Source: Xylella taiwanensis (lineage in GTDB: Bacteria > Pseudomonadota > Gammaproteobacteria > Xanthomonadales > Xanthomonadaceae). Taken from it: DNA of 32,000 nt. The notes beneath the pieces are model-generated. The model saw only the letters and a program-made list of their open reading frames with translations, made no database searches and had not been told where the DNA came from. Location: NCBI RefSeq assembly GCF_013177435.1, contig NZ_CP053627.1, positions 1,020,001-1,052,000 on the forward strand, read 5' to 3'. The translations under genes were made by a program, and so were the position numbers. Positions 2,093-21,313 of this stretch are shown one piece after another. Position 1 is the stretch's first letter. Each line of letters starts with the position of its first letter.

Positions 2093-4020
2093 CGTCCTTC
2101 CTTGTCATAGGTGAGCATCGCTGTGGCGGCGATACTGAGTGTCGACTTGGGAGCTTTGCTCCATGCTTCCAGCAGCTTCGTCAGGCGAGTGTTGCATGCC
2201 CTGTCCTTGAGGGCGCCTTCCCAACCACCGGCAGGCCAAGACCCGCATTGGCCATGTGGCAGTGCCTCCAGGAAATCCAGCAACCGGCTCTGGAGTCCCG
2301 GCTGCACCTCCACAAGGACGGCGAGACCATCAATGCCTGCAGGCTTGGCAGCGAAGGTGCCCGTGCTCATGATCTTGCTGCGCACGGCCTCGAACACCTT
2401 TTCGGCTTCGGGGGGCAGCAGCTGCTTCAACTCGGCTTTGTAGCTCTGGAGGGCTATTTTGCTGCCGAACAATTTTTCGACTATGCCAGCCAGGTGGCCG
2501 AGCACCGACACGGGACCGAAGTAGTCCTTCTTGTCCTTTGTGACGAACAAGTAGGGGCGCAGATCGAGTCCTGACAGCTTCGGGGAGAGATGCGCCCAGT
2601 CGCGCGCCGTCTCCGACGACTTCCACTCGTTCAACACGGTGTTGTCGGAGGCGGGCACCGCTGCGGCGACCTTTTGCCTCTTCGACTGACGATTCTTGCC
2701 GTTAGCCGACACCAGGCTTTTCTCCAGCGTTTCGAGGTCTTCACACCGCCCTTGTGGATGGACTGCCGCGACCGACGCGATCTGTTCGAACAACTTTGGG
2801 ATGAATCGTTCCGCGAGCATAAGCTTCGCGAGCACGGGGAGCGTGATGTCGTTTCCAAAACCGCGTGCAGTCGCCATGTGCGCGCGCAACAACAGCGTGT
2901 TGAGGAAGCGCTTGATCTGGCGCGGGTTGCCTTTTGTGCCGCTCGCCAGGATGGGTCCGATCTGGTCGCTGAGTGCCAGCGCATTGTTTGCCTTCTCGGC
3001 TTGCTGGCCGAGCGCCGTCTTGACCATAGCGGCATCCAGACCGCCACTGCTCCACGGTCGCTTCAACTGTTCCCGCGCGACGGCGATCAGCCTCCTATAG
3101 TTCTCGTCGTTCTCGCCGATGGCGGTACCAGCGAGCAACAACGTCACGTAGATCCGTGTCTCGGTTTCACCCAGGGCCGGGATGCGGAACGGAACTTGGA
3201 TGAGTTTCTCGAGGTAATGGCGGGCATAGTCTCGCGGTCCGGTGCTGTCGGGCAGATCGGGAAAGTGCTTGCGCACGGCATATTCGATCATGGCCTCATC
3301 AGCGGCGACGACGAACGCGGTTTGCGCGGTGAATACGAACAGCCGGATGGCTTCGAGTGTTTCAATGGCGGTGTCGGGCAGGCAGCGGTCGAGGTCGTCG
3401 ATCAGGACAACGAGCTGTTTGATGTCTGCATCTTTCAGGAGCTGGGCGAATGCCTTGCGGAAGGCCTCCACTTCCTCCGACACGTGCTTGGACTCGCCCG
3501 GTTTCAGCACGGCCTTTATATCGTCAATGACTGTCGAGAGCTTTTCTTTCGTGATGCGCTTGGTAGGGTCTGCTATGAGCACTTCGAGTGAGCCGACGAT
3601 GCCTCTGCTTTGCTCGGGCGTCGGCATGCCGGTGAATGCGGTCAGGACCAGGCTGCCGGCCCGTTTGGCGATCTTCAGCAAGTCGATGCGACGCAACACA
3701 TTCTTGGCGGCTACGGTCAGCTTGTTGAGCGCCGGGCGTTTCTCGATCAAGCCTGTCACGATCCCCTCGATCAAGGCGATCTTCGCATCCTCGAAGCCCT
3801 GGAAGCGCCACCCATTGAACTTGAGGCATAGGACAGCGTCCTGATCCGCGAAGCCAGCGTCGATCATTTCGAGCACGCTGGACTTTCCCGCACCCCAGTC
3901 GCCGTGCACGCCGATCGTTACCGGGTGGTTGGGCTGCGTGCCAAGCAACTTGATGATGGTGGTGGCAATGGCCTCGTTGTTCAGTAGATCAATGTTGGTT
4001 TCGTGATCGCTCAGGATCAT
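2089..4020 (-). CDS. qatA: KAP-family P-loop NTPase, QatA-like
   Basis: The ORF is 643 aa. Walker A is GVHGDWGAGKSSVLEM (nt 3877-3903) and the KAP-type Walker B is QLVVLIDDLDRCLPD. A strong RBS (GGGAGGAG) lies 5 nt upstream of the ATG at 4020. It is the first gene of a three-gene overlapping operon. Confidence 0.8.
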   Translation of the reverse strand: MILSDHETNIDLLNNEAIATTIIKLLGTQPNHPVTIGVHGDWGAGKSSVLEMIDAGFADQDAVLCLKFNGWRFQGFEDAKIALIEGIVTGLIEKRPALNKLTVAAKNVLRRIDLLKIAKRAGSLVLTAFTGMPTPEQSRGIVGSLEVLIADPTKRITKEKLSTVIDDIKAVLKPGESKHVSEEVEAFRKAFAQLLKDADIKQLVVLIDDLDRCLPDTAIETLEAIRLFVFTAQTAFVVAADEAMIEYAVRKHFPDLPDSTGPRDYARHYLEKLIQVPFRIPALGETETRIYVTLLLAGTAIGENDENYRRLIAVAREQLKRPWSSGGLDAAMVKTALGQQAEKANNALALSDQIGPILASGTKGNPRQIKRFLNTLLLRAHMATARGFGNDITLPVLAKLMLAERFIPKLFEQIASVAAVHPQGRCEDLETLEKSLVSANGKNRQSKRQKVAAAVPASDNTVLNEWKSSETARDWAHLSPKLSGLDLRPYLFVTKDKKDYFGPVSVLGHLAGIVEKLFGSKIALQSYKAELKQLLPPEAEKVFEAVRSKIMSTGTFAAKPAGIDGLAVLVEVQPGLQSRLLDFLEALPHGQCGSWPAGGWEGALKDRACNTRLTKLLEAWSKAPKSTLSIAATAMLTYDKEGR

Positions 4021-4804
4021 GCATCTCCTCCCTGTTCATCATGAAATGCAAGCCGTATCACTCTTTTTACGCAGTAGTGCGGCGGTGTGTGTTTCCACAC
4101 AGCGGCGCAGCCGGTCATCGTCCAGATGTTTTTAGCTCATCCTGGTTGCGAATACCGACGGACAACACGTCCAGGCATTGGCCGCGTGTCAGCCGCACTG
4201 CAACTTTCGTGAGAAGTGGGGCGGCGGCGTGCAATCCGAATGCGAGCCGCTGAAGCATCTCATCTAAGCCTTTGAGGACATCGGGCTGATCACGGGGGCG
4301 CTATCGAAGTGCAAAGCGGGACGCATGCCCCCAACGTTCACACCTGCATCGGCGAGGCCGAGAAAAGCTACCCAAAGGCGCGGCAGTGTAGGTGTGCGGA
4401 GTGCTGGACGGTGGTCAATGTTGGACGGCTGGAGATGGCCAAGGTTCGCAGTGAGTGATTATCGCTTGGCCGCTGTCATTCTTGGTCTCACCGGGGACGG
4501 TTGGCGCGATGTCGAGTCGATCGGTTGCTTATTCACTTGCCGCGCTATCGTTCAGGGCTGGCGATAAGGACGAGGATGTTTGCCGTTGCGTGTGGTCGCT
4601 GACAGCGATGGCCGCAGCGCCCATGCTCCATTCACTCAAGCGCTCAGGGAGGAGGAGCGCGATGCAAGGCGGATCGGATGATGAGGTGATCGCCAAGTAC
4701 TGTTGTGCCGATCTCACCTGTGCTGCGGCGTGGCTTGCCGAAGTCCACGGCGACGATCACCCGTCCGGGCTTGCTAAGATGGCTGCCGGGTTAATGCCGG
4801 GTTA

Positions 4805-5749
4805 ATGCCGGATAACGATGACACACTCCGCGTGGAGGCACTGACGGGTGAGATGAGCATGGACGAAAGCAAGGTACTGGTGAATGAATTGGTGGATGCA
4901 GTGCTTGACAGGACTGTGTCATTGGCTCATCTGTTGCGTCTGGCGCTGGTGGCCGCGTCGCGCTTGGAGCTTCCCGCACTGGCGGCATGGATCAAGGGGG
5001 AACTGAACGGTTATCCCTCGGATGAGGTTCCCGACTATCGGCGGGTATTGGCACCGTTTATCGCCAAGGATCCAGTCAAGGGCTTTGTCCCTCTCAATCT
5101 CCCGCCTGACATCAGCAAAGAGTTTGCTCAGCTATCTGTCATACAGTCGATTCATGAGCTGGGACAATTTGCCCAGCGGAAGACCGAAATTTATTTCGCT
5201 TTGAATCCTGAAATTGAGCGTAGTTTGATGGAGATCATGCGACTTTCGTCCGGAGGGATGGGGCGTCCGCTGTACTTATTATCGAACGAGAAGGTTCATG
5301 AAATACTCGAAAAGGTGCGCGACAAGGTGCTGCAATGGGTGCTTGATCTGGAGACTCAGGGCGTGCTTGGCAAGGGAAGGATATTCTCAGTGGAGGAAAA
5401 GCAGATCGTGAAAAACTATCGTTTTAACTTTGGAGACGTCAAAAACTCTAATGTTCAAATTGGGACGATCGGTTCCAATCAGACCCATATTCACACAGCG
5501 GATGACATGGCCGCGTTGTTATCGTTGATTGAGTGTCTGCGCACAGCGCTTGAGCAAGGTGCTGTCTCGGAAGAAATCCGCGGCGAGCTGCAAGCCTATC
5601 TAATGACTTTGCAAGAACAGGCTATTTCATCAAAACCGGAATGGCCCATTATCAAGAGGGCCGCGCAGAGTATGAAGGCTATGTTCGAGAACGCAGCCGG
5701 AAATGTGATTGCGGCACAAATCATGCCTTATCTGACCCCCTTTCAATGA
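4805..5749 (+). CDS. AbiTii-domain protein (putative single-gene abortive-infection type protein)
   Basis: The ORF is 314 aa. Its N-terminal region LAHLLRLALVAASRLELPALAAWIKGELNGYPSDEVPDYRRV matches the AbiTii N-terminal pattern as I recall it (helical LLR..A..L, then W...ELNGY...vP.YR). The body has visibly lower GC than its flanks. An alternative start is the ATG at 4853 (MSMDESK), preceded by GGTGAG. Confidence 0.6.
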   Translation: MPDNDDTLRVEALTGEMSMDESKVLVNELVDAVLDRTVSLAHLLRLALVAASRLELPALAAWIKGELNGYPSDEVPDYRRVLAPFIAKDPVKGFVPLNLPPDISKEFAQLSVIQSIHELGQFAQRKTEIYFALNPEIERSLMEIMRLSSGGMGRPLYLLSNEKVHEILEKVRDKVLQWVLDLETQGVLGKGRIFSVEEKQIVKNYRFNFGDVKNSNVQIGTIGSNQTHIHTADDMAALLSLIECLRTALEQGAVSEEIRGELQAYLMTLQEQAISSKPEWPIIKRAAQSMKAMFENAAGNVIAAQIMPYLTPFQ

Positions 5750-18060: not shown

Positions 18061-19011
18061 ATGAAAGTCCTGCTTGCCAATCCTCGAGGTTTCTGCGCCG
18101 GCGTTGACCGCGCCATCGAAATCGTCAAACGCACCATCGAGATGCTGGGAACCCCCATCTACGTCCGTCACGAAGTCGTGCATAACCGTTTCGTCGTTGA
18201 TGATTTGAAGCAACGCGGTGCGGTGTTCGTTGAAGAACTGCATCAGGTCCCCGATGGAGCAACAGTGATTTTCAGCGCCCACGGCGTATCGCAGGCCGTG
18301 CGTCGCGAAGCGGCGCAGCGTGGACTGAAAGTGTTTGACGCCACCTGCCCGCTGGTGACCAAGGTGCATCTGGACGTGGCTCGCCACTGCCGCGCCGGAC
18401 GTGACATGGTACTCATCGGTCATGCTGGACACCCGGAGGTGGAGGGCACTATGGGGCAGTGGGACCAGGAGCGTGGTGCTGGCCATATCTATTTGGTTGA
18501 GAACATCGACGATGTCGCCATGCTGGATGTAACCCAACCGCACCACCTGGCCTATACCACCCAAACCACGCTGTCGGTGGACGACACGCGCAGCATCATC
18601 GAGGCGTTACGCAGGCGCTTCCCAACCATCCAAGGGCCGAAGAACGATGACATTTGCTATGCCACCCAGAACCGCCAGGATGCGGTGCGGAATCTGGCCC
18701 GAGCATGCGACTTGGTGCTGGTCGTCGGCTCGCCAAACAGCTCCAACTCCAACCGGCTGAGCGAATTGGCGCAACGCGAGGGCGTCGTGTCCTACCTGAT
18801 CGACAGTGCTGCTGAGATCGATCCCGCCTGGGTCATTGGTAAGCACCACATCGGTGTCACCGCGGGTGCCTCTGCACCGCAAGTGCTGGTCGATGGTGTG
18901 CTGGCACGGCTGTACGAACTAGGTGCAGAAAGTGTGTTGGAACAAAGCGGCACACCGGAATCGATGGTCTTCGCACTCCCCAAGGAACTGCGCCTGCAAC
19001 TGGTGGGTTGA
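18061..19011 (+). CDS. ispH: 4-hydroxy-3-methylbut-2-enyl diphosphate reductase
   Basis: The ORF is 316 aa and reads [22 protein letters not shown]...FSAHGVS...[10 protein letters not shown]...HPEVEGT...SSNSNRL. Confidence 0.95.
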
Positions 19012-19212
19012 GGGTGCGAAGCGCGCGTCGGCGTTGACCAGTCAGAACGCCCCGCCCTAAAATTCCCCGCTTAGGCCGCACTCGTTCACGGAGTGGTCAC
19101 CGTGTACTACTCGTGGCGGCGGAGGTGCAAGGCCTGCATCACCAGGCGTTCGGGCTGCCAGCGGTCCGATGGCTTTGCAGGACAGACACGGTTTAGACAT
19201 GTTTTGGTTTTC

Positions 19213-19288
19213 GCCGGTGTAGCTCAGTTGGTAGAGCAGCGCATTCGTAATGCGAAGGTCGTAGGTTCGACTCCTATCTCCGGCACCA
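19213..19288 (+). tRNA. thrW: tRNA-Thr (anticodon CGU)
   Basis: The sequence GCCGGTGTAGCTCAGTTGGTAGAGCAGCGCATTCGTAATGCGAAGGTCGTAGGTTCGACTCCTATCTCCGGCACCA folds as a cloverleaf by hand. The anticodon loop is TT-CGT-AA and the CCA is encoded. It is near-identical to the enterobacterial thrW sequence as I remember it. Confidence 0.9.
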
Positions 19289-19299
19289 TGATGTAGCGG

Positions 19300-19330
19300 A
19301 AGGCCGTCCACTTAAGGTGCGGCCTTTTGT
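19300..19330 (+). terminator. terminator-like hairpin after the tRNA
   Basis: AAGGCCG (19300-19306) pairs with CGGCCTT (19320-19326) and is followed by TTTTGTTTG. Confidence 0.5.
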
Positions 19331-19429
19331 TTGTCTCTCACTAACATAGTGCTGATCATTCCGATGCTACATGAAGTTGTTGAAGGGCTGCGTGGCATGC
19401 TGCAAGGTATAGAGTCTAAGTTAGACGCT

Positions 19430-19463
19430 CAATGCATCGTGTCGCCGGTGACACGATGCATTG
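19430..19463. other. perfect 14-bp stem hairpin in non-coding DNA downstream of the RT gene (candidate structured RNA element)
   Basis: CAATGCATCGTGTC (19430-19443), loop GCCGGT, GACACGATGCATTG (19450-19463). I checked all 14 pairs by hand. No T-run follows on either strand, so it is not a classical terminator. Confidence 0.4.
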
Positions 19464-19873
19464 CCACGATTGATGCAGTTTCTGCTTTGTCTCTGCCAGG
19501 GGGCATTGAGACACCAGTCGGCCCACCTTCCTTGACTGGCTTAACGACTATTTTCTCCCAGCTCCCAGTCTAGACTGCGTCGCAATTGACCTTTATGGCA
19601 GCGTACTGCGCAGTCCTCCACATCTATCGACTTGAGTCCGACCTAAGCGCCGTGAGTGAAGCTCGTCCAATTTCTATCAATGGCAGGACAGCACTTTCGC
19701 AAGTTGCTTGCCAATGCTGTTGTGGTCAACGTGGGATCGCTTGTCCAAGCTGTTCGAGCCAGGCGTTGAAAAAGTTGCTGCTGCGGAGCGAGCCAATCAC
19801 CAGCTTTTCGCACGGGTCGCCTATCACATGGGCGATCTTCTCTGCCACGCGCCAAGATAATCACGTTGATTGG

Positions 19874-20836
19874 TTAATGTCGTTTGCTGATTCTCGACGC
19901 ATCCGCACGATGTTGATCACGTTTTACATCATCAAGCAGTGCGAGGTGGCGCTTTAACCCGGCCACACTCGCGCGTAGCGTTAGATCATGCGGGTTTTGT
20001 TCTAGCTGCGCTTGAGCTTCCCGCATCTTACGGTGCTGCTTATTCGGAGCCCTACTGACTCCGTTTCGACAGGCGCGTCCTGTAATGAGCTTGGCGGCAT
20101 CGGCTCGGAAAACGCGCGTCTTTGAGTCCTTTAGTCTCAATCCTGAGCGGCGTATAAGGCGACCGACCCAGCGTGCGTCTGTATGGCCGAAGCCATTGCC
20201 GGTTATGGCCATGTCGTCAATATAGAGCGTGAAGACCCCGCCGCGTGACCGCACTCTGTCATTGATAGAGTCAAACAAATTGTGATATGCCCAAAAAGAC
20301 AAAAGTGGGCTGGCGGGACTTCCTGTGGCTAGGTGTCCATCGCAGCAAAGCAGATGCGCAAGTGTCTCTGACACATCAGGTGCACAGTTGAGCTTCTGTT
20401 CAAAGAATTGTGCGACGCGATGCAGTGTTACTGATTGATAGAACGAATCAATATCCATCGTGACGGTGGAGCCGTCAGCCTTGCAGTGTGCTGCAGAATT
20501 GCTCAAGTACGAGTAGCCAGGGCGCGCAGAGTGCAGATAATCGGGAAGCTCAATGCGAATAAGAAGGTCAAGTAAGCGCCTCTGAAAACCCTTTAGCCTA
20601 CGGGCAGGTGCTTCAATAAGACGATCCTTGCCAGGCTTCGATGTGTCGATGTATCTCGTGTAGTTGTCGGGCTGGCGAGTGAAGGTCTGTAGTTGCCCTG
20701 CTGTGCCGGCCCACCAAAGGATTTCAGCAAGTTTTGTATGACGCCGAATGCCATACAGGTGTGACGAAGCGATCCTGTACCGCTCAGTTCGCCTCTTTGT
20801 TGAGACGGGTTTGGTCGTCTGCTGATTCATTCTCAA
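19874..20836 (-). CDS. reverse transcriptase, retron-like (small stand-alone RT)
   Basis: The ORF is 320 aa. Its RT motifs are TMDIDSFYQSV (motif A), LATGSPASPLLS (motif B-like), FTLYIDDMAITG (YxDD, nt 20213-20224), LKDSKTRVF, and LITGRACRNG resembling the retron xVTG region, plus SNSAAH resembling retron NAxxH. There is no maturase, endonuclease or other fused domain. Confidence 0.8.
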   Translation of the reverse strand: MRMNQQTTKPVSTKRRTERYRIASSHLYGIRRHTKLAEILWWAGTAGQLQTFTRQPDNYTRYIDTSKPGKDRLIEAPARRLKGFQRRLLDLLIRIELPDYLHSARPGYSYLSNSAAHCKADGSTVTMDIDSFYQSVTLHRVAQFFEQKLNCAPDVSETLAHLLCCDGHLATGSPASPLLSFWAYHNLFDSINDRVRSRGGVFTLYIDDMAITGNGFGHTDARWVGRLIRRSGLRLKDSKTRVFRADAAKLITGRACRNGVSRAPNKQHRKMREAQAQLEQNPHDLTLRASVAGLKRHLALLDDVKRDQHRADASRISKRH

Positions 20837-21101
20837 TTGTCCATGAGAGGACGCTTAGTAGCTTCTCAGCACGGGCGCGTCTTGTTTCTGATTCACCTTC
20901 GAGTGCTTCCATGAAACTTAAAAACGTCGAAGCCGGAACATCAAAGACACTGGCATATTTGTTCAACACATTGAGGCTCACCTTCTTTTCGCCTCGTTCA
21001 AGCTCTGACAAATAAGACTTCGAGATTCCCAGCAAATCAGCGAGTTCGCCCTGCTTCATCCGATGAACCTCTCGGATGATCTTGAGGGCTCTATTCAACA
21101 T
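20784..21101 (-). CDS. XRE-family helix-turn-helix protein
   Basis: The ORF is 105 aa. LKIIREVHRMKQGELADLLGISKSYLSELERGEKKVSLNVLNKYASVF is a canonical HTH_3 pattern. A GGAGG RBS lies 5 nt upstream. Its 3' end overlaps the RT ORF by 53 nt. Confidence 0.85.
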   Translation of the reverse strand: MLNRALKIIREVHRMKQGELADLLGISKSYLSELERGEKKVSLNVLNKYASVFDVPASTFLSFMEALEGESETRRARAEKLLSVLSWTIENESADDQTRLNKEAN

Positions 21102-21132
21102 TTCGCCTCCGTATTACTTTCCTCAAGTGGGT

Positions 21133-21198
21133 AGTGTTGTTCTATGGGAGGGTGTTGGTTTTGTCGTATCATGCTTGGCTATCAGCGCAGTGTTGTTC
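21133..21198. promoter_or_regulatory. two direct repeats AGTGTTGTTC upstream of the HTH gene (candidate operator sites)
   Basis: Identical 10-mers lie at 21133-21142 and 21189-21198, spaced 56 bp apart in the 95-nt gap upstream of the HTH start. Their extended context agrees at 12 of 14 positions. Confidence 0.35.
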
Positions 21199-21313
21199 AA
21201 AAGAAACGATCAAGCAGTTTCCAGACAACCATGACCAATTGTATGAACCAAGGCTTCCTCAAGAATCGCTTGAGATAGCCAACCAACTTCTGACGCTTGT
21301 CGTGCTTCATCAT
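21197..21313 (-). CDS. hypothetical 38-aa basic/hydrophobic peptide upstream of HTH-RT (speculative)
   Basis: The peptide is MMKHDKRQKLVGYLKRFLRKPWFIQLVMVVWKLLDRFF. It is on the same strand as HTH-RT and is preceded by a purine-rich GAGATAAGAAG. It has no recognisable family and could be non-coding. Confidence 0.2.
   Translation of the reverse strand: MMKHDKRQKLVGYLKRFLRKPWFIQLVMVVWKLLDRFF

Follow-up and report, generated by a model that had tools for sequence, protein, structure and literature searches.

A predicted Type VI retron in Xylella taiwanensis with a small-protein gene and an apparently truncated hybrid RNA

When a gene for a helix-turn-helix (HTH) protein overlaps a gene for a retron-like reverse transcriptase (RT) and no effector is recognised beside them, the question arises of how such a pair could act. 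The pair considered here lies on the minus strand of the Xylella taiwanensis chromosome, in a stretch of 32,000 nucleotides (nt; contig NZ_CP053627.1, positions 1,020,001 to 1,052,000) that we call the window and whose own numbering is used throughout. The answer that we consider likely, taken as a whole, is that the pair belongs to a Type VI retron with a small protein (SP), that the hybrid RNA (hyRNA) of this retron is truncated at its 5′ end, and that the copy is most likely defective in triggering that depends on reverse transcription. The components of the locus follow one another in the order hyRNA, SP, HTH and RT. The kind of system is already known from Mestre 2020, from PADLOC and from two mechanistic preprints. 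New here are a Type VI subclade found across the Xanthomonadales, in which the SP is short (43–48 amino acids, aa) and the hyRNA covaries well, and an X. taiwanensis copy which, on comparison with its relatives, is a natural deletion of the 5′ domain with RT, HTH and riboregulator intact.

The retron proteins and their assignment

The HTH open reading frame (ORF; 20784..21101, minus strand) encodes a 105-aa protein of the Cro/C1 type, and the RT ORF (19874..20836, minus strand) encodes 320 aa when read from a TTG codon; the two overlap by 53 nt. Both ORFs and their overlap are as first described, save that the RT most likely starts 6 nt further in, at the ATG at 20830 (19874..20830, 318 aa), because the RNA-directed DNA polymerase of X. 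taiwanensis at NCBI has 318 aa (100% identical to the window RT) and homologous RTs begin with MNQQT or MKQQT. Counted from this ATG the overlap is 47 nt, equal to that in the homologous locus L047. The HTH protein is full length, is 84–90% identical to those of the closest loci and has its own GGAGG Shine-Dalgarno sequence.

The assignment rests on profile matches over the full length of both proteins. The PADLOC model RT_VI matches the RT with 226.7 bits (8.2e-68, model positions 2–271 of 279; the runner-up, RT_X, scores 119.3 bits), and HTH_VI matches the HTH protein with 91.2 bits (8.8e-27, model positions 1–91 of 92). The best PADLOC models for the RT are all retron models; in NCBIfam other retron RTs matched below threshold only, and in Pfam the two proteins match RVT_1 (2.8e-10) and HTH_3 (1e-12). 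At 105 aa the HTH protein also resembles those of Type VI HTH cluster 2_1, which are 91–110 aa long and lie upstream of the RT or overlap it. The features by which Type VI is recognised (Mestre 2020; PADLOC retron_VI) are thus all found: the RT group within retron clade 3, here judged by profile scores, an adjoining Cro/C1-type HTH gene and competent catalytic motifs. The locus is almost certainly a Type VI retron, as the original prediction had tentatively suggested.

The catalytic core is complete. The window RT carries the motifs DIDSF, SPASP, NSAAH and ITG (VTG-like), and the minus-strand codons of YIDD occupy 20224..20213. Across 32 aligned members of the family Y203, D205, D206, T250 and G251 are invariant, and N111, S112 and H115 of NSAAH are at least 90% conserved, which bears out the core and the retron-like motifs as originally read. 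Degenerate catalytic residues, which had been named beforehand as a possible flaw in the retron call, are not seen; the YIDD residues are among the invariant ones and the window RT departs from the consensus at 2 of 106 highly conserved columns (homolog median 3). Pairwise dN/dS (nonsynonymous over synonymous rate) against the five closest relatives is 0.05–0.14, and the changes on the Xylella lineage are 8 nonsynonymous versus 20 synonymous, where the neutral expectation is roughly 3:1. By these comparisons the RT ORF shows no decay and is under purifying selection.

Other classes of RT had been set aside from the start, and they are rejected here too because no template repeat/variable repeat (TR/VR)-like repeat lies nearby, because no Rfam family other than tRNA is found and because of the model scores. 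A diversity-generating retroelement is ruled out, as 19150–31000 contains no TR/VR-type repeat pair of more than 30 nt and the best PADLOC models are those of retrons. A group II intron is ruled out by the Rfam scan of 19000–22500, in which tRNA alone matched, and by the NCBIfam model group_II_RT_mat, which scores 21.9 bits against a cutoff of 300. The Abi and UG readings are ruled out by the PADLOC, NCBIfam, Rfam and repeat results together.

For comparison 61 loci were fetched; among those encoding RT relatives, 22 are distinct, come from outside Xylella and contain the full upstream region, and these related loci with enough upstream DNA are the 22 homologs or relatives referred to below. 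In every one of them an ORF of 43–48 aa lies about 80–100 nt upstream of the HTH gene and on its strand. This ORF is conserved in start, stop and frame, insertions and deletions are multiples of three, and variation by codon position follows the order 3>1>2. The proteins share the consensus M-x(3-7)-RKHDKRQ-x-L-x3-LKR-x-LR-x2-WF-x-[RK]-[LF]V-x3-[VI]W-[KR]-x2-D[RH]. Searches with tblastn gave matches down to 1.5e-18 in 16 loci, all upstream of the HTH gene and on the same strand, and independent gene callers had called the ORF in several metagenomic contigs, as 45 aa in L047, L049 and L050 and as 44 aa in L059 and L060.

The window counterpart, located by homology and synteny, is a 38-aa ORF at 21197..21313 (minus strand), MMKHDKRQKLVGYLKRFLRKPWFIQLVMVVWKLLDRFF. 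It is uncalled in the database annotations of X. taiwanensis, and no SP model in PADLOC, Pfam or NCBIfam matches it. Its position is that of the SP toxins of Retron-Vpa2 and Retron-Sen3, and we hold with high confidence that it is an SP gene and the predicted toxic effector of the locus. The pair is accordingly not without an adjacent effector, as had been supposed. The window SP is shorter than those of all relatives: the 7 residues after Met are gone, the conserved G-R among them, one residue is also missing inside the hydrophobic segment, and a Q stands where 22 of 22 homologs have R or K. It is the sole coding part of the window locus that looks unusual.

Two Type VI retrons have been described in preprints, namely Retron-Vpa2 of Vibrio parahaemolyticus (Zhang et al., bioRxiv 10.1101/2025.10.22.683967) and Retron-Sen3, with the cl2075 lineage, of Salmonella enterica (Garcia-Rodriguez et al., bioRxiv 10.64898/2026.04.27.721009). 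In both, a small toxic SP is encoded upstream of the HTH gene, inside a structured RNA that also holds the template for reverse transcription. The mode of action, which the original prediction had left open, is therefore described at the level of the family. HTH and RT pairs without an apparent effector need not be a mechanistic puzzle, since the toxin is an unannotated micro-ORF inside the retron RNA. The described SP clusters include cl2075, cl2760 and cl3272, with proteins of 75–79 aa, as well as cl3897. The lengths found here (38 aa, and 43–48 aa in the homologs) are unlike the 75–79 aa of clusters 2075, 2760 and 3272, and the SP of the Xanthomonadales clade may represent an unclustered or undescribed SP family.

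Structure and truncation of the hybrid RNA

The relatives share a structured element of about 480 nt upstream of and around the SP gene. A consensus structure was derived with RNAalifold and pair statistics were computed on 23 sequences. From its 5′ end the hyRNA comprises a leader (GUUCGC...), the hairpins H_a, H_b and H_c and a long hairpin, H_d (about 55–60 nt with a variable tip); its 3′ part continues with the hairpin H_e, the inverted repeat arm IR1, a strand of helix 11, helix 13, helix 15, helices internal to the SP gene and the second arm, IR2. Over 115 consensus pairs 91.8% are paired, compared with 39–47% when the partners are slid by 1–3 columns, a percentage that is inflated by construction because the structure was derived from the same sequences. 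The compensatory changes are the informative part of these statistics. They occur at 40 pairs (12–22 when slid), the covariation score is 0.220 (0.05–0.07 when slid), and none of 500 shuffles reached the observed covariation values. By helix, compensatory changes number 8 and 8 at two adjacent pairs of H_e and 9 in H_b; they affect 7 of 10 pairs of helix 13 and 3 of 9 pairs of helix 11. No Rfam family matched the hyRNA, and a scan of viral contigs with its conserved motif gave no matches.

The retron RNA of the window, unlocated in the original prediction, is found at 21137..21461 on the minus strand, 5′-truncated by comparison with all 22 homologs. The 3′ two-thirds are retained, running from the 3′ strand of the long hairpin through H_e, IR1 and the riboregulator to the SP coding region and IR2. 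Of the 76 consensus pairs that fall in the 3′ part, 67 can still form in the window, and a single-sequence fold of its RNA reproduces the consensus architecture. A complete structured RNA (msr-msd) upstream of the SP gene is thus a property of the clade and not of the window, in which the inverted repeats flanking the SP gene, the sequestered SP ribosome-binding site and start, and the short direct repeat in the msd and riboregulator loops are all found.

The 23-nt hairpin H_e (21397..21431, minus strand; GGCGUCGG-CAAGGUC-CGACGCC), which forms helix 8 of the consensus, is 98.9% paired. It is directly followed by IR1 (21386..21396, minus strand; CUAUAGGAGGG), the 5′ arm of a long-range inverted repeat, which in the RNAalifold structure pairs with IR2 (21142..21152, minus strand; CCCUCCCAUAG) downstream of the stop codon of the SP gene. 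The two helices so formed, 9 and 10, are 93–98% paired, with 9 of 9 pairs intact in the window. Between the arms lies the riboregulator (21320..21380, minus strand), comprising helix 13 and the helix 11 strand. In helix 13 (21356–21366 with 21320–21329) ACACCGAGA, which lies shortly before the SP start codon, is sequestered. In helix 11, which in the consensus involves SP codons 10–12, the window strand 21372–21380 pairs with SP codons at 21289–21297; the pairs of both helices are intact in the window, save the terminal pair of helix 11. Helix 15, which adjoins the SP start codon, has lost its 3′ strand in the window through the in-frame deletion in the SP gene. The repeat GCAAGG occurs twice, in the loop of H_e (21417–21412) and in the internal loop of the riboregulator (21354–21349), and is present at both sites in 21 of 22 homologs, the exception being L005.

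This architecture closely resembles that reported for Vpa2, whose multicopy single-stranded DNA (msDNA) of 86 nt consists of a 63-nt core and an essential 23-nt 5′ stem-loop (Zhang et al.). In that system it is the msDNA's 5′ stem-loop that is required to switch on the SP, and 7-nt direct repeats, to which the two GCAAGG copies found here correspond, are proposed to let the msDNA open the riboregulator. By analogy H_e would be the counterpart of the 23-nt stem-loop in the msDNA template, since H_d and H_e (about 60 and 23 nt) match the two parts of the Vpa2 msDNA in size and order; H_d would then be the msd, and H_a to H_c an msr-like domain that binds the RT. Vpa2 and the clade also agree in the order of structured RNA, SP, HTH and RT, in an SP gene that lies inside the hybrid RNA with its ribosome-binding site and start in helices, in a1/a2-like inverted repeats that tie the 3′ end to a 5′ arm, in a short direct repeat in two loops and in a small SP with a hydrophobic C-terminal part. 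The Vpa2 SP, compared by its description, is longer (55 aa against 43–48 aa in the clade and 38 aa in the window), and the window copy differs from Vpa2 in that ~142 nt at the 5′ end of its RNA, together with the promoter region, are absent.

Sen3 shares the SP-HTH-RT layout, the overlap of HTH and RT, inverted repeats IR1 and IR2 flanking the SP gene, a non-coding RNA (ncRNA) within about 280–290 nt upstream of the SP gene, and an SP coding region under constraint from RNA structure. Its SP and those of cl2075 are different, at 75–79 aa with an N-terminal extension, and the SP found here is about half that length. Sen3 also differs from Vpa2, in that its single-stranded DNA is constitutive and the SP is controlled post-translationally through the HTH protein.

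Canonical retrons (Ec86/Eco1, type II-A) have in common with the locus a retron-clade RT with NAxxH-like and VTG-like motifs and a template RNA with terminal inverted repeats. They differ in that their msDNA is an antitoxin and a separate enzymatic effector is present, whereas here the effector would be a riboregulated micro-protein with the msDNA as its proposed activator; the a1/a2-like arms here also flank a coding sequence, unlike those of canonical retrons. IR2 reads CACCCUCCC(U/A)UAG in the window and in 20 of 22 homologs and ends in a nearly invariant UAG. The CACCCU..UUAG motif (CACCCUCCCUUAG) resembles what we take to be the a1 repeat of Ec86 together with its branching G (CACCCUUAG), a likeness that we treat as a lead only. 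The G of UUAG directly 3′ of IR2 is a candidate for the priming nucleotide of Type VI retrons; because the template would lie directly 5′ of IR1, this G sits where the branching G sits relative to a1 and a2 in canonical retrons.

Several searches place the end of the window hyRNA at the same point. An nhmmer profile of the full element, built from 17 homologs, matched the window only at model positions 143–486 (21461–21137, E=1.1e-85), and model positions 1–142 had no match anywhere in the 32 kb. The other loci with sufficient upstream DNA begin at model position 2–5 (22 of 22), and the X. taiwanensis assemblies examined at position 143 (4 of 4). The truncation is not an assembly artefact, since it is common to all four assemblies, and the absence of the 5′ part is a derived loss because all other loci, including outgroups with 44–53% RT identity, are full length. 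With blastn, homology to 17 loci runs from the HTH start (21101) and ends at 21447–21461. A covariance model of the 5′ domain with H_e scores 55.7 bits in Xylella against 80–167 in the relatives, and the Xylella alignment has H_b and H_c deleted and H_a in a non-canonical form; run with its filters off over the window in search of the missing domain, the covariance model returned only the truncated match. The hyRNA is therefore, very probably, 5′-truncated in X. taiwanensis.

The junction can be placed at 21455..21461 (minus strand), where homology of the hyRNA to all relatives stops. Compared with L051, about 180 bp are missing, comprising the end of a 133-aa gene, a promoter-like motif, the leader, H_a to H_c and the 5′ strand of H_d; about 142 nt of this belong to the conserved hyRNA. 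Among the non-coding parts of the locus none is as conserved in sequence as the lost domain, which 22 of 22 relatives retain with compensatory changes. Immediately upstream of the junction, at 21455..21676 (minus strand), lies a remnant of the 133-aa gene with two in-frame stops, which tblastn aligns over 83 aa at 36% identity (E=1.2e-10), and the remaining hyRNA is, by these alignments, fused to this pseudogene. In the metagenomic locus L051 the 133-aa gene immediately precedes the hyRNA, and in L002 it lies at a greater distance upstream; its product, to which no family is assigned, contains repeated RW.DP.[FY]R motifs. At 21995..22189 (minus strand) lies a remnant of the 247-aa gene that precedes it in L051, aligned by tblastn over the C-terminal 67 aa at 42% identity (E=2e-8), which indicates synteny in a decayed island. 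The idea that the 5′ region of the window holds an msr-msd that was swapped or has diverged is ruled out, since the region is at protein level a homolog of the 133-aa gene of L051 and L002, with stops, and the closest relatives (80–85% RT identity) keep the canonical domain.

The promoter region appears to have been lost with the 5′ domain. An A/T-rich motif, ATGAAYA...ATAAAT, is conserved about 30 nt upstream of GTTCGC in L003, L047, L051, L058 and 18 other loci and is absent from the window. Its ATAAAT lies 5–7 nt before the conserved start of the hyRNA in the homologs, and is probably a −10 element and possibly an operator for the HTH protein. A simple consensus scan of the minus strand over 19300–22300 found no sigma70-like promoter, which is weak evidence because the same scan is uninformative in the relatives.

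State of the Xylella taiwanensis copy

In the scheme published for the family, as drawn from Vpa2 and Sen3, a single transcript is both the template that is reverse-transcribed and the sequence that codes for the SP, whose ribosome-binding region and first codons are buried in helices. RT, HTH protein and RNA form a complex. The HTH protein keeps the system off, by repressing reverse transcription as in Vpa2 or by neutralising the SP as in Sen3, and by homology the HTH protein of the window may have either role. Phage recombination or anti-RecBCD functions act as the trigger; in the Vpa2 model the accumulating msDNA, which bears the complement of the loop repeat, would open the riboregulator, and the SP then made would arrest growth of the infected cell. 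The sequence-level requirements of this scheme are present in the clade of 22 homologs, to which its biochemical steps would extend by homology.

For the Xylella copy, deletion of the promoter region and of the 5′ domain would be expected to block normal transcription, msDNA synthesis or both, and the SP has lost 7 N-terminal codons along with one regulatory helix. The SP should nevertheless stay off, as the riboregulator is intact. Removal of the whole non-coding part is toxic in Vpa2 (Zhang et al.), and the Xylella deletion may have been tolerated because the retained riboregulator silences the SP. It had been foreseen that a component kept by homologs might be deleted here, leaving a remnant; a component has indeed been lost, but it appears to be the 5′ domain of the RNA and not a protein effector. 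The intact RT, HTH and SP ORFs would fit either a recent deletion or a self-maintaining toxin–antitoxin pair of SP and HTH. On balance the copy is probably impaired in function, silenced or crippled, and without normal msDNA.

Three points weigh against a defective copy. The absence of decay in the RT, with its few consensus deviations and its excess of synonymous changes, is unexpected in a long-dead element. The promoter scan was a crude consensus match, and transcription may come from upstream. The equation of the lost 5′ domain with msr and RT recognition is itself an inference, as the priming G and the RT-binding positions of Type VI hyRNAs are unpublished.

One rival reading takes the locus for a Type VI retron that still works with a minimal hyRNA. 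Its priming would take place at the IR1/IR2 duplex with the G of UUAG as branch point, the template would begin from H_e, the 5′ domain would be dispensable, and transcription would start from an upstream or internal promoter. In favour of this, IR1/IR2, H_e with its GCAAGG loop and the riboregulator are intact; the counterpart of the stem-loop that switches on the SP in Vpa2 would be among the parts retained, and purifying selection on the RT points the same way. We nevertheless consider this unlikely, given that the lost domain is so strongly conserved across the relatives, that the long hairpin has lost its 5′ strand and the promoter-like motif is missing, that the SP carries unusual changes and that defence by Sen3 requires the 5′ stem-loop of its ncRNA (Garcia-Rodriguez et al.).

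A second reading, which overlaps our preferred one, holds that only an SP-HTH toxin–antitoxin (addiction) pair is functional, the RT being a passenger kept through translational coupling by the 47-nt overlap or through association with the HTH protein. The HTH-SP module of Sen3 works independently of RT and ncRNA (Garcia-Rodriguez et al.), and addiction would predict the retention of the HTH gene, which is intact and has its own Shine-Dalgarno sequence. Against this, the SP may not be made at all, because its ribosome-binding site and first codons remain sequestered in conserved helices; the change to Q at the invariant basic position and the N-terminal deletion could equally mean an inactive toxin, and the clade SP is unlike the 79-aa cl2075 type that lies behind the toxin–antitoxin result. 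We regard this reading as improbable. A low probability likewise attaches to the more general statement that the locus is either a minimal, still functional retron with H_e, riboregulator and IR1/IR2 only, or an SP-HTH addiction module in which the RT is kept for a non-catalytic role.

The reading of the original prediction, a bare two-gene HTH and RT retron in which the HTH protein is the effector or an msDNA-binding partner, accords with the presence of only two ORFs above 100 aa, with the lack of an SP in X. taiwanensis annotations and with an annotated SP in only about 27% of HTH-type Type VI systems in the Mestre dataset, but is contradicted by the conserved SP ORF here and in every relative and by the use of the SP as toxin in published Type VI systems, and is highly improbable.

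We therefore favour a Type VI retron that is most likely defective in its reverse-transcription-dependent triggering. Comparison of the X. taiwanensis copy with a full-length relative, such as the locus of Luteimonas cellulosilyticus MIC 1.5 (L001, about 3150–5000), could reveal which parts of the RNA are needed for priming, repression and triggering. Were the minimal retron or the non-catalytic RT correct, the copy would be a ready-made natural dissection of hyRNA function; in the minimal retron priming would occur at the IR1/IR2 junction and the conserved 5′ domain would be dispensable. For Xylella biology, the suggestion is that of this plant pathogen's few defence modules one is probably not working, while the Mokosh type II gene nearby is intact.

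Genomic surroundings

The retron has ileS-lspA-ispH-tRNA-Thr on one side and gene debris on the other. The tRNA-Thr(CGU) gene (19213..19288, plus strand; ARAGORN, Rfam tRNA 67.6 bits) borders the island on the ileS-lspA-ispH side. The window contains no att-like repeat of the 3′ end of this tRNA, and no other island-bounding repeat longer than 30 nt occurs in 19150–31000. The stretch 21.1–25.6 kb is a mosaic of short overlapping ORFs, with a remnant of a TnpB/Cas12f TNB domain (22871–23521, minus strand) and two frameshifted Phage_capsid fragments (24012–24513, plus strand), which indicates decayed prophage or insertion sequence DNA. The gene for MkoC of Mokosh type II (helicase and PLD nuclease; 26061–29645, minus strand), 5 kb from the retron, encodes an intact protein of 1194 aa that matches its PADLOC model over the full length (1347 bits).

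Neighbours of the relatives vary by locus and include genes for an SNF2 helicase, a trypsin-like protease, HEPN/DUF5343, SRAP, a resolvase and ribosomal proteins. In the neighbourhoods of the relatives examined no conserved partner was found beyond hyRNA, SP, HTH and RT. To the question, raised with the original prediction, of whether HTH-RT pairs with such an overlap recur and which neighbours they keep, the answer is that the pair recurs, with the 47-nt overlap also in L047, and that its constant neighbours are the hyRNA and the SP only. In L057 an ORF of 328 aa with no Pfam match (3472–4458, plus strand) comes 15 nt after the RT and in the same orientation; the other loci do not conserve it.

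Pairs of an RT and a regulator in P2-like phages are comparable with the locus, in that a retron-type RT of about 300 aa adjoins a transcriptional regulator as phage cargo and the window copy lies in prophage debris. The phage RTs differ in having only about 30% identity to the window RT, and the pairs are probably other Type VI-like retrons carried as cargo. The phage records concerned are GU911303.1, OM046627.1 and LR595870.1, from Burkholderia KS5 (gp44/45), Yersinia vB_YenM_56.17 and Peduovirus P22H1.

Beyond the Mokosh gene, a 542-aa protein with calcium-binding repeats of the RTX/haemolysin type is encoded at 30316–31944 on the minus strand (HemolysinCabind, 6.5e-44), and DNA repeats spaced by 54 nt lie inside its gene at 30682–30936.

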